DNA of 56,213 nucleotides from a virus (IMGVR_UViG_3300044980_000094:1-56213), one strand, 5' to 3'. Positions 29,751 to 56,213 are shown, counted from the stretch's first letter. Notes: generated from the sequence alone by a model not told the origin. Made by a program: numbers and translations.

Positions 29751-29764
29751 AGCATTTGCCCAAT

Positions 29765-34529: not shown

Positions 34530-34875
34530 TTAACTCTCTCCCTCGGCCAAGTTTTAGCGATCCGTCCAATATCAATGCCTCATGAATGCGCTGCTTAAAA
34601 GCGTCATCGTAGGGCAGCGAAAGCATCCCCGCAAGCGTGGCCCGCGCGCTTTGGACCATCGAGCCATAGTATTTGGCCACAAACGCATCTTCGAGCTGCT
34701 TCGCATTCGCCCCCGGATGCCTGCGCCGCCATTCACTGTAAGCCTCCGGGAACTTAGTCATCGTGATGTCATAGAGGTCGTGAGCCAGCTCTTGCGCTAG
34801 TTCTCTCACCATTGGATGGACATGCGCCTTGCGGCGGACAGTGCGGGGGCTAATCAAGTGTGGCTCCTGGCGCAC
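34522..34875 (-). CDS. Hypothetical protein
   Basis: Overlapping ORF in head operon. Confidence 0.68.
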   Translation of the reverse strand: MRQEPHLISPRTVRRKAHVHPMVRELAQELAHDLYDITMTKFPEAYSEWRRRHPGANAKQLEDAFVAKYYGSMVQSARATLAGMLSLPYDDAFKQRIHEALILDGSLKLGRGRELNA

Positions 34876-35752
34876 GCATTCTAGGCTCAGTCGCGTAGGG
34901 GTTATAGTCGATCGGAGTAAATTTGTGCTGCGGAAACATACTCAGCAGCATTGCTAGTTTGAACGCATTCGGATTGGCAGCAGTGCCAGGCATGGCAGCA
35001 ATCGACGCAGGAGCCGAGCTCCCATCTGGGCCATAGGCCATGCTTGGCACAGCACTGGCTGGCCCTATATTAGCCGCAACCGGATGTTGGGCCACAAACG
35101 GCTGCGCGACACTGCCAGGTGTCGATTGGCCGCTCTCGCTCGTCTCAGTCCCCTGATGCATGGGTTGGCCCGAGTTTGGGCTCCAATCTGCGTCCTGGAA
35201 ATGTGGCGGATCGCCAAAGTTAGCCCCAGGATACAAGCCATACTTTGGCGCATTTGCAATTAGCCATTGCTGGCCCTGTGGTGTGTTTGCGGCAAGATCG
35301 ATAGCTCGACCGTAATTGTGATAACTCTGTCCGGGCTTTGCCGCGATGCCGCCAGAGCCATCTTGTGGATATGGTATTGGTTGTCCAGCCTGTTTGGCTT
35401 GATAGTTCGCATATAGCCTGGACTGCAGATCCACGTCCCTATAGCCGCTCAGTAGGGTCGTGTCTACTCCAGCAGCCTTCGCCGCCTGTTGAAAAGCCTG
35501 CGCTTTGGAGGAGAACTGCGGATCAAGATTGGCAGTATTGGCATTTTTGGCAACATTGCTGAAGCCGTCGCGATTGGTTCCAATACCAGCAGGCGGCGTC
35601 GGGTTCCGTGCGTAACTCAACAGTCCCCGGTCAACGATGGGATTGCTCTGCGAACTGGCAGCAACGGGCGCCCCAGTGGCTCCGAGAGCATTAGGACTCG
35701 GAGGCATTGCGGCCCCACTACCAGCTGGGACTGTTGGCAATAGCAGATTCAT
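34850..35752 (-). CDS. M15-family zinc peptidase (peptidoglycan hydrolase) with disordered flanks
   Basis: SGYR...Q..LY, A.PG.S.HNYG.AIDL, DPPHFQ. Confidence 0.85.
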   Translation of the reverse strand: MNLLLPTVPAGSGAAMPPSPNALGATGAPVAASSQSNPIVDRGLLSYARNPTPPAGIGTNRDGFSNVAKNANTANLDPQFSSKAQAFQQAAKAAGVDTTLLSGYRDVDLQSRLYANYQAKQAGQPIPYPQDGSGGIAAKPGQSYHNYGRAIDLAANTPQGQQWLIANAPKYGLYPGANFGDPPHFQDADWSPNSGQPMHQGTETSESGQSTPGSVAQPFVAQHPVAANIGPASAVPSMAYGPDGSSAPASIAAMPGTAANPNAFKLAMLLSMFPQHKFTPIDYNPYATEPRMRAPGATLD

Positions 35753-38086: not shown

Positions 38087-39373
38087 TCATGCCATCCATC
38101 CCAGCCCCGGCCGTTCACCCATTCCCAGCGACAGCCTGAGCTTCGCAATCATATCACTCTTGGGCCTTGTTGGGTCTTTGGCGCTGACTGCAAAATATCT
38201 CCAAGCATCTGCGCCATCTGAAGCCCAGTCATGCAGTGGCTCGTTGCTGAGATGCCCATCGATGACCCTGTATCGATAATGCCGCAGGGCATTGAGTCCA
38301 TCCTCGCAGCCGTCAGCGTCCCAGTAGCAGTTCGACATCACAATCCGCGCGGCATTAATGCCATCGGTAATGCGCTGATTAGCCACAATACTCGTGCGGT
38401 AGCCAGTCTGGCGCAAAATTTCCTCAATCGTCAATTTCATCCCCAGCCTCTTGGCCTTCGCATCATGCGGCAAGTGCATGACGCCGTAGACATAGGCGCG
38501 TTTCTGGCATTCCTTAAGGAAATGAGTCAAATCCTGGCCTGTGGCTTCATAGTAGGCCAGAATCCGCCATTGCATCGAGACCCGCTGGACGAACCAGATA
38601 GCAGTATTATCCGCTCGCCCCAAGTCCCAATACGTATCCACCGGCAGGCTGCGATCATACGGGACTGTGCAGATACGGCCCTCCAGCGTCGCCCTTCGCA
38701 GTTCCTTTGCATACACGGCCCCCTCGAGTTGCTGGACTGTGTGGCCTTCCCAGATATTAAGATAATGATCGAAGTCCCGCTCTTTGTCCGATTCCATTTC
38801 CTTCCGCAAAACGCCCGGGAACCACGGATTGTCCCGCCAGGTCATTTTGACAATCGCCGACTCGTTCCTATCAGCCTCTTTGACAAATCGGACATATGTG
38901 TAATCGGTCTCCAGCTCCGGATTGAAGGTAATCCAAATCTCGCTCTGCTCTTTACGAATTGTCGGAATGAGCACACTCCACGAGTTCCGTGTGACCTTAT
39001 TGGCCTCTTCGACCCAGCAGTAATCAATACCCTCGTAGGACTTGATCTTGTTGACGTTATTGCGAATGCCATCGAACGAGAACGTAGTGCCGTTGGAGCC
39101 ATAAATCTTGGCCTTTTCGATAGTATAGAATCCGCTGAGGCCCAAATCGGCAATCTGGTCACTCAGCACCTTGTGAACCGATTCCTCGATAGAGTTCTGT
39201 AGCTCCCGAACGCAAAGAACCCTAACGGGCTTGACTTGCCCCAGCAGCAGCAGGGCTCTAGCGCAGCCCCAAGAGCGCCCTGCGCCACGGCCCCCGTACA
39301 GGACCTTATAGCGTTTAGGCTGGAATAGACATTCCAGCGGCTTGGGGAATTGGGCTTTTACAGGCTCGAGCAT
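38087..39373 (-). CDS. terL: Terminase large subunit (PBSX-like)
   Basis: YGGRGAGRSW, RELQNSI.ESV, IKSYEG.D..WVEEA, PTIRK..SEIW.TFNP, WDLG..D, HDWASDGADA.RY. Confidence 0.96.
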   Translation of the reverse strand: MLEPVKAQFPKPLECLFQPKRYKVLYGGRGAGRSWGCARALLLLGQVKPVRVLCVRELQNSIEESVHKVLSDQIADLGLSGFYTIEKAKIYGSNGTTFSFDGIRNNVNKIKSYEGIDYCWVEEANKVTRNSWSVLIPTIRKEQSEIWITFNPELETDYTYVRFVKEADRNESAIVKMTWRDNPWFPGVLRKEMESDKERDFDHYLNIWEGHTVQQLEGAVYAKELRRATLEGRICTVPYDRSLPVDTYWDLGRADNTAIWFVQRVSMQWRILAYYEATGQDLTHFLKECQKRAYVYGVMHLPHDAKAKRLGMKLTIEEILRQTGYRTSIVANQRITDGINAARIVMSNCYWDADGCEDGLNALRHYRYRVIDGHLSNEPLHDWASDGADAWRYFAVSAKDPTRPKSDMIAKLRLSLGMGERPGLGWMA

Positions 39374-39431: not shown

Positions 39432-40775
39432 TCACAGCTCTGCCGACCAAATCAGCTGCCCCGACCCATTCGCACTAGTCAGCACACAGGTCTGGCCCGC
39501 CGTCAGTCCTGAGGCTACAGTGGCCGTCATACTGGCACCGTTGATCGTGTTGGCCCCCAGCACTGCAAGAAAGCCCGTCGCCAGTGCTGTTGCAGTAGCC
39601 ACATGCGTTATCGTGAACGTGGCGGTGGTCAGCGGATTTGGCGACGAGCTATACGTCGGCGCAATACGCATTGTGACTGGGAATGGGAAATACAGCTGAC
39701 AAGTCGTGGTCGTTGCACCATTGCCGGCAGCACTCTGCTGGGTTCCACTCGTCGCAGACTCATTGATGGTATAATAATATCGCTGCTGATAGAGGGTTTC
39801 CTCGTTGATGGTCCTGCGATTGAAGGCACTGAGCGGAGCTTGGCTGGAATTGTAGCCCAGAGTCGCATTCACATACGAAGCCGCGGCGTTACTGCGCTTG
39901 AGTTGAATCCCCTCAAAGGCAATGTAGTCATTAGCCCCGGCTGTGCCGACTGGCGTATAGCATAGCACGGCGGCGACTTCGGTCGCAGTGGCCGGAATGG
40001 AGGCAAATGCCCCATAGCGCCCTGCAGTAGAGACTCCGCCCAGATTGACCACCGCCGCAGTAGCGTTAGTCTGGCCAGTCCATCCACTGCTACCGCCGCC
40101 TCCGGCGTTGAGGCCAAAAGCCAGCTTCTGTATGCCCTCATCGGCCCCAGTGCCATACACGATATAGGCCGTCATGTTGGCCCCGGCGGCGCTGAAATTA
40201 GCCCCCGTATAGGCATTGAAGTCCAGCTCAGCCGTCTGGCCAGCAAACGCATACGAGTTGAGACTCTCAACCTCTTGCGCCATGCACATCTGGACAACGC
40301 CAGTCTGCGCCGCCGTTCGCTGCATGACGAAGGCGTATTTGTAGCCAAGACTGAGATCAGTCGTCGCCGAGTCCCGACTCACGGTCATTGCCGTGCCAGT
40401 GCCAGACCAGTAAGCCCAGCGATCCGGCCCATAGGCAAAAGTCGTAGTGACACTAGGGCCAGTGGTGCCTCGCTGGAACAGATTCGTCGTCGCATCGCCA
40501 CCGATGAGGAAATTGCCCCCACTCGGCAGCCCAGCGCCAAACACCGCCAACTGGCTAGTCGTGATGGCCTCTGAGGCCGGATTCTGGCCCCCAGTCAGAT
40601 TCGTATCAGCCGGGATGGTCTCATTGCCAGTTAGCGGAATCGTCGAGGGATACTGTGTCCCCCCAGCCGGCGGAACCCCATTCGTGAACACACCTGCGGC
40701 GAAGACAGCAGCGCTGCCGCCCAGCACAATCGCCGCAGCCAGTGCCGGGCGAGCAACTTTAAGCCAAAATGCCAT
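39432..40775 (-). CDS. Signal-peptide-bearing tail-fibre-like / carbohydrate-binding beta protein
   Basis: MAFWLKVARPALAAAIVLGGSAAVFA-; N.LI.GD....QRGT...DRW, E....QRYY, FPVTMR..PT fibre-type motifs. Confidence 0.75.
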   Translation of the reverse strand: MAFWLKVARPALAAAIVLGGSAAVFAAGVFTNGVPPAGGTQYPSTIPLTGNETIPADTNLTGGQNPASEAITTSQLAVFGAGLPSGGNFLIGGDATTNLFQRGTTGPSVTTTFAYGPDRWAYWSGTGTAMTVSRDSATTDLSLGYKYAFVMQRTAAQTGVVQMCMAQEVESLNSYAFAGQTAELDFNAYTGANFSAAGANMTAYIVYGTGADEGIQKLAFGLNAGGGGSSGWTGQTNATAAVVNLGGVSTAGRYGAFASIPATATEVAAVLCYTPVGTAGANDYIAFEGIQLKRSNAAASYVNATLGYNSSQAPLSAFNRRTINEETLYQQRYYYTINESATSGTQQSAAGNGATTTTCQLYFPFPVTMRIAPTYSSSPNPLTTATFTITHVATATALATGFLAVLGANTINGASMTATVASGLTAGQTCVLTSANGSGQLIWSAEL

Positions 40776-41022
40776 TTCCATTCTCCATTGCCTCAGCGCC
40801 GGCACTTGCCAGTCTGTCCATTGTTGAGTTTCATCACAGCACTGCGGAGACACTCAATCCCCGCGTTGGGATTCCGCATCGGCGGCAAGTAGCCCTCGCT
40901 ACGAGTACAAGCCGCGCCTGCGTTTGGGTTAGCCCCAGCGACAGCGGACAGGCCATTACATGCATCATGTCCTGTCCCCATGGCTACAAGTGCCTCGGTG
41001 TCGTTGAGCCTAGCCATTTGCC

Positions 41023-41343
41023 TTACCTCCCATATCCGCCAGATTTCATCCCATGCAGCGGCTCATGTCGAACATGATGATCCGTCCCATGGTGTGGACC
41101 ATGATCGCTGTAGTGGATCGGATGCTGGTCATGCAGTTCCTTGACCGCATGGCTCAATTTGGTATTCCCTGGGCCAATGGGCGAGTTCGCCGCCTCGGCC
41201 TTGGAGCCGCCCTTCATTACACTCATGTCTGCCTTGGTCTCATTCCCGACCTCACTGCCACCCTTGGCGCCAGCGGGCTTGGAGCTCACAATGCGCTTTG
41301 GCTCCATGCCTGCAGCCTTGTTCATCATAGATTCCTTTGACAT
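41023..41343 (-). CDS. Small basic His-rich hypothetical protein
   Basis: GGAG RBS. Confidence 0.68.
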   Translation of the reverse strand: MSKESMMNKAAGMEPKRIVSSKPAGAKGGSEVGNETKADMSVMKGGSKAEAANSPIGPGNTKLSHAVKELHDQHPIHYSDHGPHHGTDHHVRHEPLHGMKSGGYGR

Positions 41344-41372
41344 TTCAGTTCTCCATTCTGGGCCACTGCCCG

Positions 41373-41579
41373 TTAGCGTCCGTAGCCTAGTCGATTATTA
41401 GCCTTGGCGTCGATTTTCGACTCCTGGCTCTTGCTCATACGGCCAGCGTTGACTGCCTGGCTTGCCCGAGCCTTGGCATTCGCGGCATGACTGCGGTCCG
41501 GGATTGGATAACTCCGATCCGGGCCGGCAAACTCGCTCTGGGGAAGAGTATTTCGGTCATGGGGGCTTAGTCTGGTCAT
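41373..41579 (-). CDS. Small conserved phage hypothetical protein
   Basis: AGGAGG RBS; R..LP.S.FA.P.R.YPIPD..HA.NA.AR pattern. Confidence 0.75.
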   Translation of the reverse strand: MTRLSPHDRNTLPQSEFAGPDRSYPIPDRSHAANAKARASQAVNAGRMSKSQESKIDAKANNRLGYGR

Positions 41580-41595
41580 TGAATGCCTCCTTAGG

Positions 41596-42105
41596 CTAAA
41601 AGCCCATGTGCGCCGGCGCAAGCCCAACATTGGGGCGGCCTTCGGTCCTTGGCAATCGGGGCCTTATCCCAAGGCAATGCCACGTCGGCCGCCAAGCCGC
41701 ATTCTGCGCCTCCCCCAGGCTCCCGCAGACCCTATCCGCAAGCGGGGTAAGGACTTTGCAGACCTGAATCCCCCACACTGGCTGCCCCAATGCCCTCTGC
41801 ACTACAGGCAGATACAAGAGCTCGAGCTCCTCAAACGCCTGCACTGTCCACGTGTATTTGATCTCCAGCACCCCCAGCCGTTGCCCTGGCACGAGTCCAT
41901 CAACCTGGCAGCAGCCCCAGCCGTTGGCGTCCTCGAACTCGAACCAGATGCCCATCCGACTGCCAGATGGCAGCTCAGCGGCCACTGCTCGCTCGTAGCG
42001 AATACCTTGGGCCTTCTGGCCTCTAGGTCGCCCAAGCGGAATATGCTTTGGCCTAGCGGCCAGCTCTCGTGCCCATTTGATGCCGACAATCTGTCTCTTG
42101 GCCAT
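41596..42105 (-). CDS. PD-(D/E)XK nuclease-fold protein (possible resolvase)
   Basis: G..YE, QVDGL......VLEIK. Confidence 0.6.
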   Translation of the reverse strand: MAKRQIVGIKWARELAARPKHIPLGRPRGQKAQGIRYERAVAAELPSGSRMGIWFEFEDANGWGCCQVDGLVPGQRLGVLEIKYTWTVQAFEELELLYLPVVQRALGQPVWGIQVCKVLTPLADRVCGSLGEAQNAAWRPTWHCLGIRPRLPRTEGRPNVGLAPAHMGF

Positions 42106-42106
42106 G

Positions 42107-42895
42107 TTAATTGCCCTTAGGAGCAAGAGGAACCAGCGGGGCTGCTGGAGCAATGGCTGATTGGGCCTGGCGCATTTCTCTAATCTGCTCCTGGATTTCC
42201 TTAATCACATCCGAGCCGGGAAAAATCGACTCCAGCGTCTTCGTGAGATCATTGAGCCGGCTACTAATGGCGCTTACACGCTCCTCGCCGTTGGCGAATA
42301 GCGAGGCAATCTCAGGACGCTTGATCAGATTCCCATCAACAGAGTTGACGTGTCCCTCGATCCGGTCGAGGTCTCGCCGAGCATATTCATCTCGTAGTTT
42401 GTCTCGCTCATCGATCCTCTGGCGGTATTGCTCCTCCGCATCCTTCGTCCACATCGCGGCTGAAATGGTCGCGATGTCCTTTTCGTCCCGATCGAACCGC
42501 GTTAAGTCGTTGGCGTGCTGCGCGACAGCCGCAAGAATCGGCTGCATAAGCGTGTTGATGTCTTTAATCTCGGATTTTCGGTCGCGCGCCTCGCTCTCTA
42601 CGGCCTTCTCGATTCGCGACATGTTGGAGTCGAGGTCGGTCTTGACATAGGTGGCAATTCCCAGGAGCACCACGATCGCGCCGGTCGCGACGCCGCCAAA
42701 TTTCAACCAATCCGTCGGCTTGGCCGCCTGGCGATCGATCTTAGCGCCCAGCTCCCTGATCTGCTGGCCGATGTTTTCGGCGAGGGTGCCTAGGGCGCGA
42801 TCCAGATTAGTAACGCGCTGATCCAGCGCGCCGAGGTCGATATGAGCACGCTCCCAGCCACGCGCAGAGGGGCTTTTGGTTTCCCCGTCCACCAT
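42107..42895 (-). CDS. Single-TM coiled-coil protein (lysis region)
   Basis: TM FGGVATGAIVVLLGIATYV flanked by coiled coils. Confidence 0.7.
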   Translation of the reverse strand: MVDGETKSPSARGWERAHIDLGALDQRVTNLDRALGTLAENIGQQIRELGAKIDRQAAKPTDWLKFGGVATGAIVVLLGIATYVKTDLDSNMSRIEKAVESEARDRKSEIKDINTLMQPILAAVAQHANDLTRFDRDEKDIATISAAMWTKDAEEQYRQRIDERDKLRDEYARRDLDRIEGHVNSVDGNLIKRPEIASLFANGEERVSAISSRLNDLTKTLESIFPGSDVIKEIQEQIREMRQAQSAIAPAAPLVPLAPKGN

Positions 42896-42898
42896 GGC

Positions 42899-43705
42899 TT
42901 AGGCAATCGCCTGCAAGTCGGCACTGAGCTGCGTCAGGTCGAACCCGTTGGGGGCCTTACCGCTCGCCTTGGAAAGCGCATCCGGCCCCAGTACAGTGTA
43001 GAGTTCGCCCTGTGGCCCCGGCCGGCAGTACTTATCGATGGCCGCCCAAGTGATCGTGCCGATCATTCCCCAGGAATCGATCTGAACGCCCTGGGCATTA
43101 TATCCCACCCCGACGAAGCAATGGCCGTAGTCCGGGTTGGCCTCCCCCGCTATATCCCAGACGAATCCACTCTGCCCAGGCATCGGATTGACCCAAGCAT
43201 CCGGGAGTTCGACGCCGAAATACAGATTCTCGAACAGCCACATGGCTTGCATCTGCTCGATCTTATTCCCAGGATCGACCGCCATGTAGCCAGCGATTTT
43301 GTGCTGGCCCGGAGTGAGGCCGTTATCCTTCCAGTAGTTCAGCACCGTGACTTCGTCGCCGCCCTGATCAGTCGCGGGGTCACCCGGCACATAGCCGGTC
43401 GTCGCCGAGTAGAACGCAATGACCTGCTCTTCCGTAAACGGCACAGGACTAGCGCCGGCATTCGCTAGCAGCAGCCCCCCGGTATGAAAGGCTCCGGCTG
43501 CCGTGCAGTCGCCGAGGGTGTCGTTGCCGAGAATCCGCGCGAGCCAATCTGCGGCCGCCGCAGCGTATGTCACCTCAGACGGGGGCTTCGGCAGGCTCGC
43601 CAGCAGATAGTTGCCCAGCGACAATCTGGGGCCTCTTGCGCGGGGGCGTAGACGTCCGAGCTTGAACGTGCGGGGGATCGGCAGGCTTGAGGGTGCATCG
43701 GTCAT
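42899..43705 (-). CDS. Papain-like (C1-type) cysteine peptidase-like protein
   Basis: GND..GDCT.A, GHCF..VGY, IDSWG. Confidence 0.75.
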   Translation of the reverse strand: MTDAPSSLPIPRTFKLGRLRPRARGPRLSLGNYLLASLPKPPSEVTYAAAAADWLARILGNDTLGDCTAAGAFHTGGLLLANAGASPVPFTEEQVIAFYSATTGYVPGDPATDQGGDEVTVLNYWKDNGLTPGQHKIAGYMAVDPGNKIEQMQAMWLFENLYFGVELPDAWVNPMPGQSGFVWDIAGEANPDYGHCFVGVGYNAQGVQIDSWGMIGTITWAAIDKYCRPGPQGELYTVLGPDALSKASGKAPNGFDLTQLSADLQAIA

Positions 43706-43716
43706 CAGGTGGTCTC

Positions 43717-44076
43717 CTACGTATCGGCGGGGGCAGTGATCGGTGGCAGTCCACACGCGTTGATAAACGCCTGCGCGGCGTTGAAATCAGCCTGGCTGAT
43801 ATGATGGACCGTGGTCTCGTTGGCGATTATCGTGGCCGTCCAACTGCTGGCGGCTGGCGTCAAATATATTTCGACCTTGACGGAAAACAGCAGCCAGTCA
43901 TCTTCCGCCACAAGTGCGAGCCTGTTGGCGCTTGCCGTGCAATTTTCGAGAGTGACACTACGAATCGCTCCGTCCTCATTGATCTCGCATGCGATCGTCG
44001 TAGCGTCGGTCTGGGTGAGAGTGATCAGCGCGCCGTCGTCTGGGGCGCTGATCTGGACTGAGGGCCAGCTAGCCAT
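43717..44076 (-). CDS. Hypothetical protein
   Basis: Overlapping ORF in operon. Confidence 0.55.
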   Translation of the reverse strand: MASWPSVQISAPDDGALITLTQTDATTIACEINEDGAIRSVTLENCTASANRLALVAEDDWLLFSVKVEIYLTPAASSWTATIIANETTVHHISQADFNAAQAFINACGLPPITAPADT

Positions 44077-44242
44077 TGCTCGGCACCGTGGCTGTGGGGC
44101 CGTTTTTAGCCGCCAATTTCTGCGCGCCGATAATAGCCAGCGATATGAGTGTGCTGTAGTCAGCGTCAGATATTGTGGCTTTGTCCTGAGTCCATATGCG
44201 CTGCATGAACTCACAGATGGTCTCCGAGGTTACGTCAGTCAT
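44069..44242 (-). CDS. Hypothetical protein
   Basis: MTDVTSETICEF..., overlaps both neighbours by 8 nt. Confidence 0.5.
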   Translation of the reverse strand: MTDVTSETICEFMQRIWTQDKATISDADYSTLISLAIIGAQKLAAKNGPTATVPSNG

Positions 44243-44579
44243 GTTTTGTCCAGCCGTTTTGTCTCGACACAAGTATCCAGTGGATTGTATTTTCAATCGC
44301 CTTGTGAATGGCGTATTCAATACCCACAGCTTCACTTTTTTGGATACCGGCAAGACTAAGCGACGCCGGCAATTCAACTCGCACTTCCAAGACGTTTTGT
44401 GATATTCTAGTCGTAAACATAGCACCCTTGGTTTTGCATTCCTGCGCTCCGTAACGAGCCTGCTCGCCGAAAGTCAGCGAATAGAAATCCTCATCGTTCA
44501 TTGGGCGGCCCGCGAGTGCCTCATTCCAGTCGGCTTTCGCCGCCTCGAATCCTATTGGATGTCCTTGAGCGCTGGCCAT
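44235..44579 (-). CDS. Hypothetical protein
   Basis: ORF in operon. Confidence 0.55.
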   Translation of the reverse strand: MASAQGHPIGFEAAKADWNEALAGRPMNDEDFYSLTFGEQARYGAQECKTKGAMFTTRISQNVLEVRVELPASLSLAGIQKSEAVGIEYAIHKAIENTIHWILVSRQNGWTKHD

Positions 44580-44625
44580 GACTACACCGTCCGCAAGTTA
44601 CGCCTAGCCATCTTTGCTGGCCGCC

Positions 44626-45000
44626 TCAGAGAAAACTCACCACCACCGTCTTGCCATTCGGCAACGTCACTTTCGTCGCCGGCGGCGTCCAGACCTTGAA
44701 GGCCCGGCCGTTCGGGGCCTTCGTGAAGCGGAACTTCGCGCTCGCTGGCGCCGGCCCGATCGCGTTACAGATGGCCTGCGACAGCGCCGCAAGATCCGCG
44801 AGGCCCGCGCTGGCCGTCGGCAGGTCGGCGGCGGTGATCATCGCCCCGACGCTGAGCGTGCTCGGCACAACCTGACAGAGTTCCTCGCAATCCTGCTGGA
44901 TCGTGGCGATGTCAGCGGTGACCTGCGCGGGGGTGAGCGCGCAGGAGGAGAGCGCAAGCCCAGCGGCTGCAGTGATGGCGAGAGCGGCATTTTTCAGCAT
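44626..45000 (-). CDS. Lipoprotein (possible spanin component)
   Basis: Signal peptide with lipobox LSS-C; RBS AAGGAA. Confidence 0.72.
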   Translation of the reverse strand: MLKNAALAITAAAGLALSSCALTPAQVTADIATIQQDCEELCQVVPSTLSVGAMITAADLPTASAGLADLAALSQAICNAIGPAPASAKFRFTKAPNGRAFKVWTPPATKVTLPNGKTVVVSFL

Positions 45001-45017
45001 GATGAAGGTTCCTTTCC

Positions 45018-45113
45018 TTAGTGCTTCGTTTCAAGATACAGACAGATAAGCCCAACGACCCCATAAGCAGCGATCAACAATCCGATCGCGACAATGATCA
45101 GGTCATTGAACAC
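45018..45113 (-). CDS. 31-aa membrane peptide
   Basis: GAGG RBS, GTG start, MFNDLIIVAIGLLIAAYGVVGLICLYLETKH. Confidence 0.45.
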   Translation of the reverse strand: MFNDLIIVAIGLLIAAYGVVGLICLYLETKH

Positions 45114-45121
45114 GTGCTGCC

Positions 45122-45871
45122 TCACGGGACATGATCGGCGACCGCCGCCGAGGCGACCGACTTGGTCGCCGTGATAAGCGCCTGCGGCGCATTGGGGGGC
45201 AGGTCGGCAACCTTCTGGGCGGCAACGACAACCGGGGGCCTGGGCGGCGCGAGTGGCCCAGGCGCGGAACTGCTATCCGCATGCAATATGATATTCAGCA
45301 CCCCGGCCAGTAGCCCGGCAATGGCGACCATCTGTGTCGCCTGCTCCCCGCTCACGACGCCGCTCAACGAGAGCGCGCCGGTGCCGATCGCCGCGAGGAT
45401 CAGATAGGCGATGTTGAGCCACATCGAGACTTTTGGGGCAATGGACATTTTGAACCTCGCTTTTGGCGCCAGACCATTTTCCTGCAACATGATGCCTTCA
45501 GTGACCAGGTCCAGAGTCGTCGGGCTGGCCAGGTTGATGGCCGTATACGGCCCAATGCCGACCTGCTTTGCAATCGTCTCGGCATAGACGATCGGGTTAT
45601 TCCCCGGCTGGCCGGCCGGAGCCCATGTCGAGGCGATCTTGAACGGGGTATTGAGCCCCTGTTCGTCATATGATTTCAGGTTCAACTGGAGCGCATCAAT
45701 TCCATCCGCCGGCGTCGCGAAGATCGCAAAGCCCTTCGCATTCGCACCGCGATACCCCGGCAGGCTCTGCGTCCACTTGTCCGAGACCAGGTTGCCAGGA
45801 TTATTGCTGATAACGCCGAGAGACGCCCTATTGAGCTTGGCGAAGAAATTCAGAACTGCTTGACTGGCCAT
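45122..45871 (-). CDS. Lysozyme-like (NNPGN family) domain fused to two-TM holin-like domain
   Basis: SNNPGNL, F.TP.DG, WAP....N....Y, I..QENG; then two TM helices with possible internal start at 45448. Confidence 0.72.
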   Translation of the reverse strand: MASQAVLNFFAKLNRASLGVISNNPGNLVSDKWTQSLPGYRGANAKGFAIFATPADGIDALQLNLKSYDEQGLNTPFKIASTWAPAGQPGNNPIVYAETIAKQVGIGPYTAINLASPTTLDLVTEGIMLQENGLAPKARFKMSIAPKVSMWLNIAYLILAAIGTGALSLSGVVSGEQATQMVAIAGLLAGVLNIILHADSSSAPGPLAPPRPPVVVAAQKVADLPPNAPQALITATKSVASAAVADHVP

Positions 45872-45877
45872 GTCGGA

Positions 45878-45994
45878 TCACTCCATGACTAAGTATGTAG
45901 TCCGGCCGGCTTCGGCCTCCCCCGCCCTAGCACTGTTCATCGCCGCCAACAGCCCTATCCAGATCACTCCGACAGCCCACAGGACATTTCTCAC
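45878..45994 (-). CDS. 38-aa signal-peptide-like ORF, in frame with lysozyme gene
   Basis: GGAG RBS, GTGA coupling; MRNVLWAVGVIWIGLLAAMNSARA-GEAEAGRTTYLVME. Confidence 0.5.
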   Translation of the reverse strand: MRNVLWAVGVIWIGLLAAMNSARAGEAEAGRTTYLVME

Positions 45995-46248
45995 TTCGAC
46001 TCCTTGGCTACCTTTGCCTCAGCCGCCGCCAGATCGGCCTTCAACTTGGCGTCAGCGGCTTTCAGGGCCTCCATTTCCTTGTTGGCCGCCTGGAGTTGCG
46101 CGCTGAATACCGCCGCCTGATCGAGCGCGTTGTTGCGCTGCGCCTGGAGCGCCGAGATGATGTTGGCTTGAACGTCTGGGCCAGGGGCGCCCTGCTGGGC
46201 AAAAGCAGCGGTCGAGATCAAGGCGGAAAGAATGATAATCGTCTTCAT
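45991..46248 (-). CDS. Exported small coiled-coil protein (possible fibre chaperone)
   Basis: MKTIIILSALISTAAFA-QQ; L..QRN.ALD coiled coil; follows fibre gene. Confidence 0.75.
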   Translation of the reverse strand: MKTIIILSALISTAAFAQQGAPGPDVQANIISALQAQRNNALDQAAVFSAQLQAANKEMEALKAADAKLKADLAAAEAKVAKESK

Positions 46249-46255
46249 TTGGTCC

Positions 46256-47491
46256 TCAGTTCTGGCTGGTCTGCGCCGTCGCGGCGACGTCGAGTGTAAC
46301 ACATGTCCCTGACGAGACCGCAAACGCCACATAGTCGCCGGCTGTGATCGCGGGATTGCTAACTGTCCCATCGACCACCGTCGCCGCCGCGGTCACGGTC
46401 ACGGTCCCGATCGTCGTCGGGGTCGCGCAGGTCGTGCTGGTGCCGCATTCGAACATCGTGATCGTGGGATTGCCGGTGCATGAGAATTGCTGCGCCGAGC
46501 CCTCGATATTATTGACCGTCGAGGCCTTGGAGAACTTGTGAAACCCGGCCTTGGCGTTGATGACGGACGTCATCAGGCCGGGCTGGAAACTGACGTGGTC
46601 GGTGGCGTTGCTGGTCAGCGCGCCGCTGGTGACCATCAGGCCGGTGCTGACCGACGTGATGCCCCCGCCAACCGTGCAGGTGCTGCCCAAGGTGCAGGTC
46701 TGCCCGTTGACCGTCGTCGCGGGATTGGCGAGGTCGGCGTTGGTGACAAGGCCCGTTGCGGTGAACGAACCGGTCGCAGTCGGGCTCGCAATCGTCGGCG
46801 AGGTCGCGAGCACATAGCCGCCACCCGTCCCGGTCGGCGCGGTCCCGTTGTTGTAAACCCCCTGCGCGGCGACGTTGATCGTGCCTTGGCCCTTCGTCGC
46901 GAGCGTGCCAAGCCCGACACCGTTCTGGAATGTGGCCTCGTTCTCCGACGTGATCGAAGCTGGGGGCGTGGCGAATATCTTGACCTCCGTCTCGAGGTCG
47001 GAACCGTCAACCCACGTTCCGGTCACGACGCCGCGAATGTCGGCCACGTCGTGCTTGACCACGGTTCCGTCGTAGCCACCCCAGCCAAAATACCCAATCT
47101 CGTTGCCTGATACGAGAGTGGTTGGCGAAGCATAAGTCCCGTCGGTGCGGAAATCCTCAAAGGAGTTCGTCGCACTGCTGGACACGCCATAAGTTGACCC
47201 GACCGAACCATCGGCCGCCTGCACTGTCCAGTTCGTGGACGCGAACAGAGCCGCTGTGCTGAGGTTGATGCTCTGCGACAGCGTCCACGAATTATTGTGC
47301 GCGTGATTGATCGACGCCACGACAGCGCCAGTCGTCGGGGAGATCGTGAGGGTTCCGTCGCTGTTCGCGACCGAATTGACATTCGCAGACACATCAATAG
47401 GTGGAGCATTTCCGACAGTCTGCGCCTTCACTGCCCCCACAGCCAGCAGCCCCAGCCAAGCTCCAATCAGCAGTCTATTCCTGAGCCGCAT
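46256..47491 (-). CDS. Signal-peptide-bearing tail-fibre-like protein
   Basis: MRLRNRLLIGAWLGLLAVGAVKA-Q; Thr/Gly/Ser-rich, TGTG..VLATSPT, G.VTNADLAN. Confidence 0.78.
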   Translation of the reverse strand: MRLRNRLLIGAWLGLLAVGAVKAQTVGNAPPIDVSANVNSVANSDGTLTISPTTGAVVASINHAHNNSWTLSQSINLSTAALFASTNWTVQAADGSVGSTYGVSSSATNSFEDFRTDGTYASPTTLVSGNEIGYFGWGGYDGTVVKHDVADIRGVVTGTWVDGSDLETEVKIFATPPASITSENEATFQNGVGLGTLATKGQGTINVAAQGVYNNGTAPTGTGGGYVLATSPTIASPTATGSFTATGLVTNADLANPATTVNGQTCTLGSTCTVGGGITSVSTGLMVTSGALTSNATDHVSFQPGLMTSVINAKAGFHKFSKASTVNNIEGSAQQFSCTGNPTITMFECGTSTTCATPTTIGTVTVTAAATVVDGTVSNPAITAGDYVAFAVSSGTCVTLDVAATAQTSQN

Positions 47492-47891
47492 AGAACGCAT
47501 CCCCTGCTGTTCCGTAGATATTGATCTGGCCCTGCAAGGCCACTCCGCTCGTGGCACAGTAGTACTGCTGACCCGCAGCCAACTGCACTGCGTTGGCGAT
47601 ATTAGCCAATGCCAGACTCGTGCCCTCGCTCACATACATAGTATGGGTGCCGTAGTTGATAATCGTGCAGCCGACCCGACTGGGTCCCCCCTGCGGACTC
47701 GGCCCAGTCGCAGCCCATATCTGCTGCCAGACATTACTCGAGGCAATAGTTGACGAACTTGGGGCGCCAGAGGTCGTCCTCGGCGCCGGCAGCGTGACAA
47801 CGGGCTGCTGGGCAAAAGCGGCCACAGGCGGCAACAGTCCAGCCAATAGCCCCAGCCCGATCCCCAGCCCCAATCGGATAGATTTTCTCAT
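47475..47891 (-). CDS. Signal-peptide-bearing small beta-sandwich protein
   Basis: MRKSIRLGLGIGLGLLAGLLPPVAAFA-QQ; R.G..I.N.....MYV pattern. Confidence 0.75.
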   Translation of the reverse strand: MRKSIRLGLGIGLGLLAGLLPPVAAFAQQPVVTLPAPRTTSGAPSSSTIASSNVWQQIWAATGPSPQGGPSRVGCTIINYGTHTMYVSEGTSLALANIANAVQLAAGQQYYCATSGVALQGQINIYGTAGDAFYAAQE

Positions 47892-47937
47892 ATTCCCAAT
47901 CTCCAATCCTAGCCCCCCTAGCCCGTGGCCCCTAACC

Positions 47938-50079
47938 TCAGGGCAGTGGCTGCACTGCCAATGTCACATTGCCCGTCGCAGCTGAGCCTTCTCCCGCTGT
48001 GACACGGAAATATAAATTCGCAAAGCCCGCTGCGGTAAAAGTCTGCGAGTTTACACCCACTGCCAATGCCATCAACTCCGCATTACCCGCAGTTCCGTCC
48101 GCAGCCGTGCTTACTGTCACACTAGCCGGAGTGACGACTGTCGTCCCCGTTGCCCCTGGGCCGGTAAAGACCCCCGCCGATGCGCTGGTCAATGACCCAC
48201 TGGCGCCAGAAATCCTCACCGTATCGACTAGGAATCGCGTAAAGCCAGTCGGCAGCACAATCGGAAATACCGTATCGCCGACGCTGTTGAAATTTACTCC
48301 TCCAGAGACATACGAAATCGTCGGCAGCCCCAGCATTGCCTGCACGTTTGGCACAGTCAGCGCCGCCGGCACGGCCCCAGAGCCACTATTGTTCCCTACG
48401 ATAGTCTTGAAGCTGATCGAGGCGAGGTTGCCGACGCCGAGCGCCGAGCCGGCGACCTGGTAGCCCGTCGCGGCGTCGACCACGCCCGCTGCGGGCGTGC
48501 TCTCGCCGACGCCGAGCGCCGAGAGGCCGCCAATGCCGGAACTCGACCATGTCGAGGAATCTGCAAACGTCAGCGTTTCCGCGAAGCTGCATCCCGTGAC
48601 GACGTAGCCGGTGCGGGAGCACGACATCCAAGTGTTAGATGCGTTGTAGGCGTCGTTTACCGCTCTGAAAAAAATACTGCCAACACTATCTTCCGTGACG
48701 TCCCAATTGTGGGCGTTAGAGCCTTGCGACCCATTAGCGCGCCATTGCAGCGACGGGAGAGCGCCAACAATTTGCACGATCGGATTGAGAAGAATCGCCT
48801 GATTATTAAACGTCGCGTTTGTATAGGACAGAGGAACCACGTCGGCGCTGAAATTGCCCTGTGTGTTCGTGCCAAACACGACCCCGCTGAGGAGGACATT
48901 GTTGTCGCTTACAGTGCCGTTAATGCCGTAACCGCCATTCACAAAGACCGCATCACCAAATGTCGTCCCGGAAATGCTCGCGACAAGCGACGTGCTGTCG
49001 TTCCGGATGCCGTCTCCGGTAGAGGCGCTTCCGAGCCCGCAATTGAGAAACGAGCCGCCAGTCATCACCATATGCCAGGCGACGCCGCTCTGGAAATAAA
49101 GGCATTGCTTGGCTGCGCTGGCGAACCACGTCCCTTGAAAATACAGCCGAGAATTTGTCGATCCCGCGTCGGTTACATTAAAGCCTATGCCAGAGCCGCC
49201 CGTTGTTTCGTCTACGTCGGTCGTCGAACCAAAGAAAAGCTGCACGTTTGCAACAGCGGTGACGCTCTGGTCTACCTGAACATTTATCCCATTCTCCAGA
49301 ATATCCGTCGAATCAACATTCAAGCCGCCGACATTGCCCGCGATGTCCAGCCCGATCGTGGCGCCAAGAATCGACCCTTGCGCCTGAAAATCATCTGTGA
49401 ATTGCTGCCCGGCGTCGCCATTGATGATTTCGGCTTTGTTTGAGGCAAGAAAACTGTAGCCTCGCAGATGAAGCGTGTTGCCTCCGTTAAAGTGAATGCC
49501 ATTATAGAAATTCGTATTGCCGCCCGAGCCGCCGATTGCGCCACCAACTGAGATGTTTGAAATATCCGTCTGGCAGGTGTCCGCGAGTTGCAGGCCGTCG
49601 CCGCCCGTCATCACGGTGCTCGATCGGATGTTCAGGCCGCGAATTGTCCAGCCATAAACTGAGCAGTAGCTATCCGCGCTATCGTTCGCGACGCCGATGA
49701 TCAGCAGGTTGCCGGTCGTGGTTGATCCGGCATAGGTCAGCCGGCTATCCTGCCCATTGCCGATCAGCGAAACATAATTGACCTTCGGAAAGGTGATTGG
49801 GCTCTTGAAGATGCAATTCCCTGACGGAACATATACCGCCGATCCCGCCGTCAGCGACGCCGCCCAGTTCGTCAGCGCGGTCGTATCATCCGTCGTGCCG
49901 TCGCATTTGGCACCGAACTGCTGCGGAATCACTGGCACACTAGGAAGGAACTCCAGCGACCCACCCGAACTGGGCGAGTAAACATACCCAGTGCCCTGCT
50001 GAGCAAGCCCCGCCGACGCCAGCCCGAGTGCCAGCCCAATCCCCGCCAATATCGCCCGGACCCCTTGCCTCTTGCTCAT
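47938..50079 (-). CDS. Signal-peptide-bearing tailspike (pectate-lyase-like beta-helix)
   Basis: MSKRQGVRAILAGIGLALGLASAGLA-QQ; QFGAKCDGTTDDT.A...VYVP.G start of beta-helix. Confidence 0.85.
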   Translation of the reverse strand: MSKRQGVRAILAGIGLALGLASAGLAQQGTGYVYSPSSGGSLEFLPSVPVIPQQFGAKCDGTTDDTTALTNWAASLTAGSAVYVPSGNCIFKSPITFPKVNYVSLIGNGQDSRLTYAGSTTTGNLLIIGVANDSADSYCSVYGWTIRGLNIRSSTVMTGGDGLQLADTCQTDISNISVGGAIGGSGGNTNFYNGIHFNGGNTLHLRGYSFLASNKAEIINGDAGQQFTDDFQAQGSILGATIGLDIAGNVGGLNVDSTDILENGINVQVDQSVTAVANVQLFFGSTTDVDETTGGSGIGFNVTDAGSTNSRLYFQGTWFASAAKQCLYFQSGVAWHMVMTGGSFLNCGLGSASTGDGIRNDSTSLVASISGTTFGDAVFVNGGYGINGTVSDNNVLLSGVVFGTNTQGNFSADVVPLSYTNATFNNQAILLNPIVQIVGALPSLQWRANGSQGSNAHNWDVTEDSVGSIFFRAVNDAYNASNTWMSCSRTGYVVTGCSFAETLTFADSSTWSSSGIGGLSALGVGESTPAAGVVDAATGYQVAGSALGVGNLASISFKTIVGNNSGSGAVPAALTVPNVQAMLGLPTISYVSGGVNFNSVGDTVFPIVLPTGFTRFLVDTVRISGASGSLTSASAGVFTGPGATGTTVVTPASVTVSTAADGTAGNAELMALAVGVNSQTFTAAGFANLYFRVTAGEGSAATGNVTLAVQPLP

Positions 50080-50882
50080 GCCACCACCACGAAGCCGTTA
50101 TTATTCCACAGCTGCCCGCTGCCGGCGCCCGGATTCACCTTCGGCAGCAGATTCCCATTCAATACCGCCGACCCAGACTGTATCTGCACCGCCACAATGG
50201 CGCCAAAGCACGAGTCGTTGCCGCTCGTGCAAATTGCCCAGGTGGACAAAAAGACCTGAGTCATCTGTGTCAGTTCCAGCACAATCATGCCCGTCGCGAA
50301 CAGAAACGGCGCTGGCCCCGTCACGACGCCGTTGTTCGGGTCCTGGCCTGTGTCCACGAACCCCAGCGGATTCCCGAACGGAATCGTCGCACTCGTGGTG
50401 CTGATCCAGCCCCGGACCCTCTGCGGCCCAATCGACGCCGCGTTGCCGACGTTGCCGCTCACAGCCCATGTCCCCGGCGGCAATTCGATCGAGGTGATGT
50501 CAGTCGGAGTTGCAGTCGGCAGCGGAACGGGACTTGACTCTGGCACGACAGAGGAGACAATGGCAGGGCTGCTGGCCGCAGCCGTCTGGCCATCACCGAC
50601 CTGAGTAATCTGGTCCCAGATTACATCCCCGAACTGGTCCTGGACAATCTGCCTATACTGGCCGTCGAGAGCCCAAATGGAGCATTGGCCGCTGGCGTTG
50701 AGCCCGATCGGATTGGCGTTCGGCACTAGCTGTTGGGCGTCTTGCCAGGTCACTGCCGGAGTGGTCGTGTTGGGTACATAGATATATACTAGGCCCCCCG
50801 CAAGCGGCACCCCATTGGCGTCAACGAATGTCTGCATGCCCGGAGGCATTTTGCCATATCCGGCAGGGGCTGTCACAGCCAC
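50076..50882 (-). CDS. Tail anchor protein with head-binding-like N-terminal domain (no signal peptide)
   Basis: F.DANG.PLAGG.VY.Y...TTTP..TWQD......N.NPI.L.A.G. Confidence 0.78.
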   Translation of the reverse strand: MAVTAPAGYGKMPPGMQTFVDANGVPLAGGLVYIYVPNTTTPAVTWQDAQQLVPNANPIGLNASGQCSIWALDGQYRQIVQDQFGDVIWDQITQVGDGQTAAASSPAIVSSVVPESSPVPLPTATPTDITSIELPPGTWAVSGNVGNAASIGPQRVRGWISTTSATIPFGNPLGFVDTGQDPNNGVVTGPAPFLFATGMIVLELTQMTQVFLSTWAICTSGNDSCFGAIVAVQIQSGSAVLNGNLLPKVNPGAGSGQLWNNNGFVVVA

Positions 50883-50913
50883 GGCCCCCAGCCCATGCCC
50901 ATGCCTGCCTCTG

Positions 50914-52446
50914 CTAGTCCGCCCGTGTGCAAATTACATCTCCGGCCGTTGCATTTCCGCCAGTATTGACATTCTCGGTCCCCAGGAATAGATTCGTACT
51001 ACTGGCGACTGAGAATCTCTTCGTCCCCGTAAACATCTTCTGGATACTGCCTGCCGTGAAGGCTGCGGACAGGAACTGATCCCCGCTCGTGACATTACCT
51101 GGCTCGGTATTGGACTGCAGCCCGACCCAAGCCTCGAGGAAACTAAACGAAACCCCTGCATTCGGGAATGTCGTCACGATGCCCCAGCAGAGCCAATCCC
51201 CTGCCCCAATAGTCGCATAGGCCACATCCTGGGGGCTTGCCGTGGACATATTGGCCCCCGAGTGGCCGGTCTGCGTCCCGCTGCCGTTACTCGCGGCCGA
51301 TATTGGACTACTGCCCGCAGTCGCGGACACAGTAATAGTCGCGCCACTTTGCCCGACCACGTAGTAATTCGCCCCCGCAGTGAAACCACTCGGCAGCCCC
51401 CCAGTAGTGGTGAAATACACAACCGTGCCGACTGGCGGTGTGTTGGTTCCCCACTGGATATTGGCCGAGCCATTCGCAAAGGTCACTATGCCACCTGCGC
51501 CAGCATAGGTAGTCTGGCAGATTTCGCCAATCTGACCGGCCCCACAGCCCGGCGGAGTGCCACTGATATTGGGGGCCACCTGGCTGCTGGAGTAGTCCCC
51601 GCTGCTAGCCACTACTGTGCCTGTGCGCCCGGAGAAAGAGTTTACAAATGCGCCGCCGTCCTTGAGGACTGTCCCGGACGTATTCGCAAAAACCGCCACG
51701 TCATTGGCGGTTGAACTCCCTGGCCCACTGACATTGCCGCCTCCGCTGGGCGTTGCCCAGACTCCGTCTCCACGCCAGTATGTCGAGCTGCTTGCTGACG
51801 TGCCGCTGGCCAAATTAGCCACCGGCAGATTGCCCGTGACGCCCCCGGTGCCAGCAGCGGCGAGATTGACTGCGGCCTGGCCTGGGCAGCCTGCGGCAGC
51901 AGTTGTGCTCAGTAGCCCGGCGCTAGAGCCACAGAGTGCCCCCTGGGTTGCTAGCCCCGAGAACGTAACGGTCCCGCTAGCCCCGAGGGTCGTAAATGCG
52001 CCCGAGCTGCGCGAACTGGCCCCGATAGGGCTAGAGTTGATATTCGAACTGCTGATGCTTGCGCCGCTGATTACGCTCGTCTGGGTCGTGGCAGGGTTGA
52101 GCAGGATCCATGAGGTCCCAGTCGAGGTCAGCATGGCCACGTAGCCGGGCTGGGCGATGTCGTTTGGCGCCAGCGCGAGCGAGCCGGATTTGACCACCGG
52201 CAGGGCCTGCGAGCCCAATGCCTGCAAGGTCACATTTGGGCTAGTATTAGCGCTGAGGGCCGTCAGCAGCAGCAGATTGGTCGTATTGCCGCAAGGCAGG
52301 GCCGGGACTGTGATCGCGTTGGGCGTGCCGCCAGCGGCTGCGTTTGCGATACACTGGACGTTTGGTTGGCTGCGGGCAGGCCCTGAGAGGCCCCAGGCCA
52401 GAGCAGTCGCGGCTAGCAGCCCAATGAGGCGGGGCTTCGAGATCAT
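50914..52446 (-). CDS. Signal-peptide-bearing tail-fibre-like protein
   Basis: [27 protein letters not shown]; fibre motifs [46 protein letters not shown]. Confidence 0.82.
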
Positions 52447-53108
52447 ACTTTGGGGCCTGGGGCGAATGGGCTGGCACTCACTGGGCTGCTCGCTGCTAGC
52501 TCGCCCTCGATGACATTGCCCGCCTCTGGCGTCGAGGCCTTGACGAACGAAATCTGAACATTGACCGGCGCAGTCCCACTGGGGCCGCCTGGGCCACTGC
52601 TTGTTGGCTCCACCAATAGCAGCTTAATCGCCTCCATTAATTCTCGGTGGGAGAATTTTTGGCTGCCGGGATTTGCCCCCTCCTCGTGGAGGCGCCTTTG
52701 CAGCAGCAGTAGAGTGTCCAGGCCCAGATCCCTCATGCGGGTCCGGACATCGACCATGATCTCGTCCTTGACGCCACTGTAATGCTCGACTAGGGCCGCA
52801 AAGGTCGGATCGGACTGGATCGAGGAGATATATCCCGGCGAGTAGCCGGTGATGAGGCTAATCCTCACTGGGGCCTCGCCGATGGCGATAAGCCGGGCCA
52901 GTTGGTGATGGCTAAAGCGCAGGTCTTTGAGGGTCGGTTTGGGGCTCAGGGCTGGCGCCTGGGGCATGGCCAGGCGGACGATGTCGCCCTCGTCGAGGTC
53001 TCGGACATACGTGGCGCTGAGGACTAGGGGGCTCGGGCCGGAGCTCTGGCCCGGCCCTGGGCTCGGCACTGGCTCCTCGAGAGGCTGCTCTGCGGCGAAA
53101 GAGTCCAT
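52443..53108 (-). CDS. HTH protein, candidate terminase small subunit or late regulator
   Basis: H..LARL.A.G.....IS..TGYS..YIS....DP.F; first gene of late arm. Confidence 0.6.
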
Positions 53109-53550
53109 TTGGGGCCTTGGCTGGCGGGATGGCGGCGACACTGAGAACGGGCTGGGAGGAGTCTGGTCGCCGCTCGGGTGTCGCCGCCGGGCGCAGCACG
53201 GAGCCACACACTACGCCGCCGATAGGATGGCGCAGAATGGGCGGCAGGGCAAGAAGAATGGGCATGGGCGAAGGGGAATGGCGGCAAGCATGGGCGGCGG
53301 ACACGGCGTGGGCGGAGCTGAGCTTGATAGGAAGGGCCGCGTGGAATGGCCGACTGTCTCTGGCCACCTAGCAAGGCCACGGTGTTTTTGCATCTCATAT
53401 CGATATGTCTTTAGGCCCTTCCCTGTGGGCTCTCCGCTCGGCCAGTCCCCCGGCCATGTCCACGCCGGGCCAGGAGCATTGTGGCCAATGCGGACTGGCC
53501 TAAGACCCGCACGAGGCGGGCCTGATGGGGAACGTGATGTTTGGCGCGCG

Positions 53551-56087: not shown

Positions 56088-56213
56088 CCACCCATCCGGA
56101 GCCCACCCCATGGCAATCACCCAAGAGCAGATCATCCACGTCATCCAGGCCGGCCTCGACATCCGCCTCCGCCACAACGCCGACATGGCGGCAATCCGCG
56201 CCCAATTAGTCGC
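56088..56213 (+). repeat. Terminal direct repeat, right copy (126 bp)
   Basis: Identical to 23-148. Confidence 0.95.

Follow-up and report, generated by a model that had tools for sequence, protein, structure and literature searches.

The window analysed here is the viral contig IMGVR_UViG_3300044980_000094 at its full length of 56,213 bp, and it represents a complete, lytic-looking 56-kb genome of a P22-like podovirus. The contig constitutes the entire record, and because its ends overlap, with the last 126 bases (56088-56213) identical to positions 23-148, the genome can be taken as closed (circular or circularly permuted) and complete. A single late block on the minus strand extends over the region between about 53.2 and 22.1 kb; in the order of transcription it holds the gene for a 254-aa protein, a set of fibre-like genes, genes of lysis type, g447, and then the genes for the large terminase, a P22-like portal, scaffold, the major capsid protein, a P22 gp10-like hub (28236-29819) and ejection proteins. 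The subject of this account is a group of six genes in that block whose products, as a preliminary description of this DNA had proposed, begin with a basic n-region, a hydrophobic h-region and a small-x-small cleavage site, the layout of a Sec-type signal peptide. These are g510 (50914..52446), g713 (47938..50079), g138 (47475..47891), g411 (46256..47491), g85 (45991..46248) and g447 (39432..40775). All six open reading frames (ORFs) are present on the minus strand at these coordinates.

The start codons that include the leaders are well supported. Those of g510 (ATG 52446) and g713 (ATG 50079) each overlap the stop codon of the upstream gene (ATGA), a GGAG or GAGG motif lies 5-12 nt ahead of ATG 47891, 46248 and 40775, and the start of g411 (47491/47500) overlaps the end of the preceding gene. 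For none of the six genes was a start with a Shine-Dalgarno motif found just past the leader. Overlaps and motifs alike favour the leader-including starts over starts lying downstream of the leaders, a possibility that the preliminary description had itself raised as an objection.

Leaders were scored with a home-made rule that asks for a net positive n-region, an unbroken stretch of 10 or more uncharged residues that includes a hydrophobic core, and a small residue at each of positions -1 and -3. Applied at the best start, the rule flags seven of the 22 late proteins, namely the six and a lipobox protein (g124, 44626-45000), and it flags 0 of 77 representative database proteins that have a head-binding domain at the N-terminus. 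The h-region ends in a canonical small-x-small site in six of six cases, followed by Q or A. By eye, neither a lipobox (L-x-x-C) nor a twin-arginine motif (S/T-R-R-x-F-L-K) is present in any of the six leaders, whereas g124 does have a lipobox. Export by the twin-arginine translocation (Tat) pathway was considered and rejected, as most of the leaders have K instead of RR. Among related loci in other viral contigs (numbered here with the prefix L), Tat-like starts of the RRD-LLAG type were seen on large neighbouring proteins (L019 4189-6414, L018 4577-5458), and some members of these relatives' clusters may be exported already folded. The case for the leaders as signal peptides is, at the level of sequence, carried by their conservation in homologues and by cysteine parity, not by the motif alone.

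The mature parts of these proteins are mostly of fibre or tailspike type, although none of the six has a Pfam match, and g510, g713, g138 and g411 have no match in PHROGs. The leader of g510 (510 aa) spans about residues 1-24/26 (52369-52446) and is followed by an N-terminal module (residues ~29-120) with invariant Cys32 and Cys52, a fibre motif (YWRGDGVW, ~202-240) and a C-terminal tip domain (382-509). The C-terminus matches the tail fiber gp48 of Burkholderia phage KL4 (E 3e-4), and a scan of viral contigs with g510 returned the short fibre motif as its sole match. The N-module of about 95 aa is common to nine proteins whose distal parts are unrelated, and this exchange of distal parts behind a constant N-terminus resembles the behaviour of an attachment module. 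In g713 (713 aa; leader ~1-23/26, 50002-50079) a putative right-handed beta-helix of pectate-lyase/tailspike type begins at FGAKCDG (residue 55) and leads into a variable C-terminal part. The family profile of g713 matches GH55 glucanases (1e-11), pectin lyase (2e-8) and the phiAB6 tailspike (1e-6), mainly over the N-terminal cap; PF12708 is matched by six of 20 family members, g713 itself matching no Pfam family at E <= 0.01. The small protein g138 (138 aa), with GGAG upstream of its start and a leader at residues 1-27 (47811-47891), has a small mature domain with two cysteines. Homologues of it occur in L002 and L006 (48-51% identity), each ahead of large leader-bearing fibre genes; the copy in L002 is leader-bearing, and that in L006 sits at the start of the locus.

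The product of g411 (411 aa, or 414 aa from ATG 47500) has its leader at about residues 1-20/23 (47423-47491), which the source's own gene call (P0176) contains, followed by a Gly/Ser/Thr-rich, fibre-like body and a conserved C-terminal module (~220-411) with six cysteines; some of its homologues carry SGNH hydrolase or S74 chaperone domains. Separated from the other fibre-like genes, and immediately upstream of the large terminase gene (38087-39373, minus strand), g447 (447 aa, or 449 aa from ATG 40781) encodes a leader (1-26, 40698-40775) and a domain of the tail-fibre C-terminal type. Residues 65-437 of g447 match phrog_4492 'tail fiber protein' at positions 770-1086 of 1096 (E 1.2e-14), that is, the C-terminal part of the model only; a profile search of the PDB with the g447 family gave no meaningful match. 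With g713, g447 or g411 as query, tblastn gave no match among cultured or deposited phages, and the scan of viral contigs gave none for g713, g411 or g138. The sixth protein, g85 (85 aa), with GAGGA upstream, consists of a leader (1-17, 46198-46248) and a 68-aa coiled coil with no cysteine; it has weak matches of coiled-coil type alone and no fibre motif, and its gene adjoins the muramidase-like and lipobox genes. It is probably a periplasmic or membrane-tethered coiled-coil protein, perhaps spanin-like, and not a fibre.

Judged by these features, g510, g713, g411 and g447 would be receptor-binding or glycan-degrading modules of the tail-fibre or tailspike type, and g138 is probably to be counted with them. 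The earlier view that four of the mature parts are of fibre or tailspike type holds, by virtue of the PHROGs match, the KL4-like C-terminus, the beta-helix family and the domain architectures of g411 homologues; in g85 there is no fibre motif.

The preliminary description had advised asking whether homologues keep the leaders, and for the most part they do. In the g447 family, found at 23 related loci in viral contigs, 20 members are leader-bearing by the rule; of the others, that in L018 has a leader-like stretch that does not satisfy the rule, one is truncated at the contig end, and the most distant (27% identity) has a classic leaderless fibre N-terminus. The leaders of this family share almost no sequence, and the mature parts are 36-60% identical. 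Among 19 homologues of g713, 16 have clear leaders by rule and by eye and one is flagged but doubtful; the remaining two begin with a head-binding domain and with another fibre-type N-terminus, respectively. Distant members of these two families (L023, P0019 and P0020) have classic leaderless fibre N-termini or a head-binding domain in place of the leader. For g411 there are 184 homologues, and 102 of the 119 examined have a leader. The N-module of g510 follows a leader, by the rule, in eight of nine proteins, the ninth having a leader-like stretch behind a long called extension. The large neighbours of g447 homologues are leader-bearing as well, within the lineage of this phage and also in another, unrelated lineage (L007-L017, L022, L027), which has other capsid and tail genes; in L015 up to six leader-bearing large proteins stand in a row.

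A second line of evidence comes from cysteines. Exported proteins of disulfide-forming bacteria reportedly show a bias towards even cysteine numbers, an observation credited to Dutton et al. (2008). The mature proteins of the window have eight (g510), eight (g713), two (g138), six (g411) and four (g447) cysteines. An even mature count is seen in every one of 21 members of the g447 family, whose totals run from 4 to 10 and in which Cys164 and Cys272 are invariant, and in the g713 family in all 18 members flagged by the rule (totals 4 to 16). Three cysteine pairs of g713 are conserved in its leader-bearing homologues and absent from both leaderless ones. Among the 102 leader-bearing homologues of g411, the mature count is even in 95, odd in six and zero in one. 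Since the totals vary and yet stay even, cysteines must have come and gone in pairs, although relatedness inflates the counts. The even numbers are, as far as sequence can tell, evidence of export that is independent of the leader motif. Cysteine content as such was tried as a discriminator and discarded, being 0.92% in leader-bearing and 0.97% in leaderless head-binding proteins (p = 0.9); parity alone differs. Leader-bearing proteins with a head-binding domain have 47 even to nine odd counts, as against 26 even to 43 odd for the leaderless ones (Fisher p = 1.9e-7).

The head-binding domain in question was encountered in the window in g268 (268 aa; 50076..50882, minus strand), which starts at GTG 50882, with ATG 50849 and 50837 also possible, and which consists of the domain (residues ~12-95, counted from the GTG), a linker and a C-terminal domain of about 150 aa. 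The profile of the g268 family matches PDB entry 7eeq, 'Tailspike head-binding domain' (E 1.1e-10), and the tail spike chains 9vyg/9vyh (~1e-10), so that the product of 50076-50882 was rightly said to have a head-binding-like domain and no signal peptide. It had also been cast as a virion anchor on which the other parts may dock. This role was not borne out: the C-terminal part of g268 shows weak similarity to the ends of g713 and g510 at the C-terminal side, and the protein looks like a short complete fibre with a head-binding domain, a linker and a tip domain of its own rather than a docking platform.

The further claim that the anchor is without a leader is correct for this genome, where the domain occurs in none of the six leader-bearing proteins, but it does not extend to relatives. 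In L001, L003, L018 and L019 the same domain comes directly after a leader; in the tailspike of L003 a strong GAGGAGAGG is found ahead of the leader start and none ahead of the internal ATG. A search of 1.84 billion representative proteins with the domain profile yielded 26,420 clusters, and among the best 150 of these the domain is N-terminal without a leader in 77, immediately preceded by a leader in 64 and unclear in nine, several of which look leader-like by eye. The predicted cut (...AxA/QTASLLPNG) leaves the same N-terminus as that of the leaderless forms, and in the records of the cultured podophages PBR31, P26218 and P4282 the domain lies at the extreme N-terminus of the tailspikes. 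A tree of the domain calls for 20 or more changes of leader state, compared with about 49 for shuffled labels, a rough figure from a quick tree of about 95 columns. In L018 (3170-3400) a head-binding tailspike was noticed that has tandem leader-like segments (...SVSEA/QTPTF... and ...CEAHS/QTPTAV...), apparently a duplication of the leader; the database protein P0021 looks similar.

The relative denoted G002 is a syntenic, complete genome of 59,027 bp with terminal repeats, rated 100% complete, and its single gene with a head-binding domain encodes a leader-bearing product of 927 aa. Leaders are likewise present on the remaining fibre-like late proteins of G002 (174, 1032 and 480 aa), making four of four, and a leaderless fibre candidate is not present. 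Because all of its fibre candidates are leader-bearing, G002 would be without any receptor-binding protein (RBP) unless the exported tailspikes join the particle.

The interpretation that we favour, with a probability of roughly 60%, combines Sec export, periplasmic folding with disulfides and attachment to particles at lysis. The leaders would be genuine Sec-type signal peptides cut by signal peptidase I, and g510, g713, g411, g447 and g138 would pass through the host Sec machinery into the periplasm, where they would fold and form disulfide bonds. DNA-filled particles would meanwhile assemble in the cytoplasm, in this phage carrying only the leaderless short fibre g268. The exported fibres would wait in the periplasm, where they may already act on envelope glycans, until particles and fibres meet upon breach of the inner membrane by the holin, or at lysis; attachment of the fibres would then be the last step of assembly. 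Canonical holin lesions are large, and tailspikes of P22 can join finished heads in vitro. Export and virion attachment are compatible, because in relatives a leader is found on the highly conserved head-binding domain itself.

The components of this proposal differ in strength. The starts, the conserved leaders, the kinship with fibres or spikes, the disulfide signature and the coupling of leader and head-binding domain in relatives can be read from the sequences, whereas translocation, cleavage and attachment after membrane breach are inferred from them. Export of the window proteins is very probable, given the leaders kept in divergent homologues and the even cysteine counts, and to that extent the original suggestion that receptor-binding or depolymerase parts are exported stands, except that g85 is probably no fibre part. 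It is likely that the leader-bearing head-binding tailspikes of the relatives end up on virions; for the five fibre-type proteins of the window the same fate is open to some doubt, at slightly under even odds. These proteins appear, from the database comparisons, to belong to a very large class, so far almost only from uncultured phages, that includes head-binding tailspikes made as secretory precursors. An extracytoplasmic branch of virion assembly in many tailed phages, with RBPs, head-binding tailspikes among them, secreted by Sec, oxidized in the periplasm and attached after the holin breach, and with the leader state switched often, can be put forward only tentatively, at a little less than an even chance.

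Several observations weigh against this interpretation. When the rule is loosened so that any of the first six possible starts counts and all ORFs of 50 aa or more are included, it flags 25 of 190 ORFs on the coding strand and 24 of 206 on the opposite strand, about 12% on either; the leader motif alone is weak evidence, because the rule is that unspecific. The counts of homologues and of even cysteine numbers are not independent events, the families being phylogenetically related, and in the family of the g510 N-module parity is mixed, with five even and three odd counts among eight full-length proteins. A head-binding tailspike with a leader was not found in any cultured phage. As to hosts, g447 homologues occur in two contigs of metagenome-assembled genomes labelled Bradyrhizobium and Salinisphaerales. 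Moreover, the only protein of the window with a recognised virion-binding domain is leaderless, and the five exported ones have no such domain, so a purely non-virion role suits the window itself equally well. The source's own call for g713 (P0001, 664 aa) begins at GTG 49932 and drops 49 codons together with the leader, although the homologues argue against that start.

The last point could be turned into an explanation in which the leaders are not export signals at all, either because the true starts lie downstream or because the hydrophobic N-terminus works in the cytoplasm or the virion. Besides the gene call for g713, internal start codons near the domain boundary in L003 and L019 could be cited in its favour. 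Shine-Dalgarno motifs, however, stand at the leader starts and not at the internal starts of L003 and L019, and random upstream extensions would neither keep the character of a leader across hundreds of divergent homologues nor track even cysteine counts, which leaves this explanation scarcely credible. Alternatively, the leaders could be uncleaved signal-anchors that tether the fibres to the outer face of the inner membrane until its depolarisation or destruction frees them, as with signal-anchor-release (SAR) endolysins, thereby timing activity or assembly to lysis. Long, Gly/Ala-rich h-regions are typical of SAR domains, and several of the h-regions here are of this kind, with 18-21 uncharged residues in g713 and g138; lysis timing would also fit a late assembly. 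Against this stand the canonical cleavage motif after every h-region, followed by Q or A, the fact that the predicted cut in the head-binding family reproduces the leaderless N-terminus, and the absence of an endolysin domain from the six proteins, and we consider such tethering highly improbable.

A weightier alternative accepts export and denies the particle: the five proteins would be free periplasmic or released depolymerases or lectins derived from receptor-binding modules, and g268 would be the sole virion fibre. By destroying or covering receptors and glycans in the envelope of the infected cell, they might shut out superinfecting phages and stop progeny from adhering to debris, in the way that the lipoprotein Llp of T5 masks FhuA. 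In this genome leader and head-binding domain are indeed mutually exclusive, g268 has its own distal domain like the C-termini of g510 and g713, so that the virion has no obvious need of other fibres, and a sequence search of Pfam and PHROGs revealed no branching or docking domain on g268; in addition, the beta-helix family resembles glycanases. Set against these points are the leader-bearing and highly conserved head-binding domain of relatives, G002 with no leaderless fibre, the N-module of g510, which behaves like an attachment module, and the size of the investment, since about 2,200 codons would be a large cost for exclusion alone. On balance we regard a role away from the virion as less likely than attachment, though as a serious alternative.

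How the arrangement proposed here, export followed by attachment to the particle, relates to known systems can be briefly considered. To our knowledge, textbook accounts place the assembly of tailed phages wholly in the cytoplasm, and known tailspikes fold and attach there. P22-type tailspikes (PDB 7eeq, 9vyg/9vyh; PBR31, X14, P26218, P4282) have the same head-binding domain as the g268 family and resemble g713 in its predicted beta-helix body, and the portal, hub and ejection-protein set of the genome is P22-like; those tailspikes, however, begin directly with the domain, whereas a Sec-type leader opens most of the fibre and spike proteins here, as well as the head-binding tailspike of relatives, and is accompanied by a disulfide signature. 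In branched multi-RBP systems (KP32/K11, G7C, CBA120) one anchored protein bears further RBPs, the secondary ones having a short conserved N-terminal docking part. The side-by-side RBP genes of the window are reminiscent of these systems, but the candidate secondary proteins here are exported, and a T4 gp10-like branching domain on g268 was found in neither Pfam nor PHROGs by sequence search. SAR endolysins, spanins and Llp of T5 also make use of Sec, but they are lysis or exclusion proteins rather than fibre or spike modules, none with a head-binding domain. WceF of Pantoea stewartii, reportedly a chromosomal bacterial tailspike-like glycanase, has a tailspike-like fold and no virion context.

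SAR endolysins and Rz1 are proteins of the phage lytic cycle with signal peptides or signal anchors (PMC10820202, PMC9144972). The MAT fibres of Bdellovibrio bacteriovorus have a signal peptide followed by a beta-rich N-terminal domain of some 130 aa that is conserved, and then by a long trimeric fibre of phage-like type with variable tips (PMC10769870). The likeness to the window proteins is architectural only; MAT fibres are cellular proteins on the surface of the predator and are not phage-encoded. A cultured case is gp48 of Burkholderia phage vB_BmuP_KL4 (L038 1955-2887), a podophage protein of only 310 aa with a C-terminal domain homologous to that of g510. Its annotated start, MKKILLIGVLAITNAFS followed by A, is flagged by the rule as a signal-peptide-like leader, the only such start among the cultured records examined, and no mention of the leader was found in what was covered of the literature on this phage; gp48 is a possible experimental handle. 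More generally, full-text searches of the literature (supplementary files being outside their scope) turned up no tailed phage whose fibres or tailspikes were described as having signal peptides. The single elements are each known, namely tailspikes, sets of several branched fibres, phage lysis proteins that depend on Sec, and phage-like fibres of bacteria with signal peptides; a Sec leader on the fibres or tailspikes of tailed phages was not found described.

If the proposal is correct, the last step of assembly in such phages depends on the Sec and Dsb functions of the host and on the mechanics of lysis. Fibres could then be disulfide-bonded and might already act on glycans of the envelope ahead of release; host range and the quality of the burst would hinge on periplasmic folding, and attempts to produce such depolymerases or fibres heterologously in the cytoplasm would probably be unsuccessful. 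Annotation is affected as well. Pipelines in which a signal peptide counts against assignment to the virion, or in which leaders are trimmed, as happened in the g713 call, would mislabel thousands of proteins, and gene calls such as P0001, in which the leader is dropped, would keep proteins of this class out of sight. An idea of the scale comes from the family of the head-binding domain alone, its 26,420 clusters including the 64 leader-bearing ones among the best 150.

Among the neighbouring genes, those of lysis type lie between g85 and g447. The lipobox protein g124 (124 aa; 44626..45000, minus strand) has a lipoprotein-type leader with the lipobox LSSC and no family match; it is predicted to be a seventh exported late protein and is possibly an outer-membrane spanin. 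The product of g249 (249 aa; 45122..45871, minus strand) combines a muramidase- or transglycosylase-like N-terminal domain with two C-terminal transmembrane segments, matches phrog_873 (3e-20) as well as phrog_2276 and phrog_7182, and is presumed to be part of the lysis functions. A 262-aa coiled-coil protein with one central membrane segment is encoded at 42107-42895 (minus strand), which makes for an unusual lysis-type set together with g124 and g249; no classic small holin was recognised in this set (44626-45000, 45122-45871, 42107-42895). At the other end, the late block is headed by the gene for the 254-aa protein (52443-53207, minus strand), which has no family match and is kept ahead of the fibre genes in L003, L018, L019 and L021 at 31-39% identity; a role as small terminase or late regulator is conceivable.

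On the plus strand, the first 21 kb code for a helicase, a nuclease, a methylase, a uracil-DNA glycosylase (UDG)-like protein, DNA polymerase A and a primase-like protein. Ten proteins of this early region were scanned and no integrase was among them; a temperate lifestyle in which the leader-bearing genes would be morons was rejected on the evidence of those ten. No tRNA was found in the window, and gene calling based on GC content at third codon positions (GC3) gave no discrimination in this genome. Three small early proteins have leader-like N-termini (4180-4446, 4437-4742 and 4989-5300, all on the plus strand). The first two are paralogues with the common pattern C.LSL..DGKT...PVDDAA..FESV..LR...C and one cysteine pair each, and the three may be exported early proteins, for instance with a role in exclusion. 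Finally, between the portal and scaffold genes lies a gene for a 300-aa protein (34850-35752, minus strand) with matches to endolysin or tape-measure-type lytic domains, possibly a virion-borne wall hydrolase.

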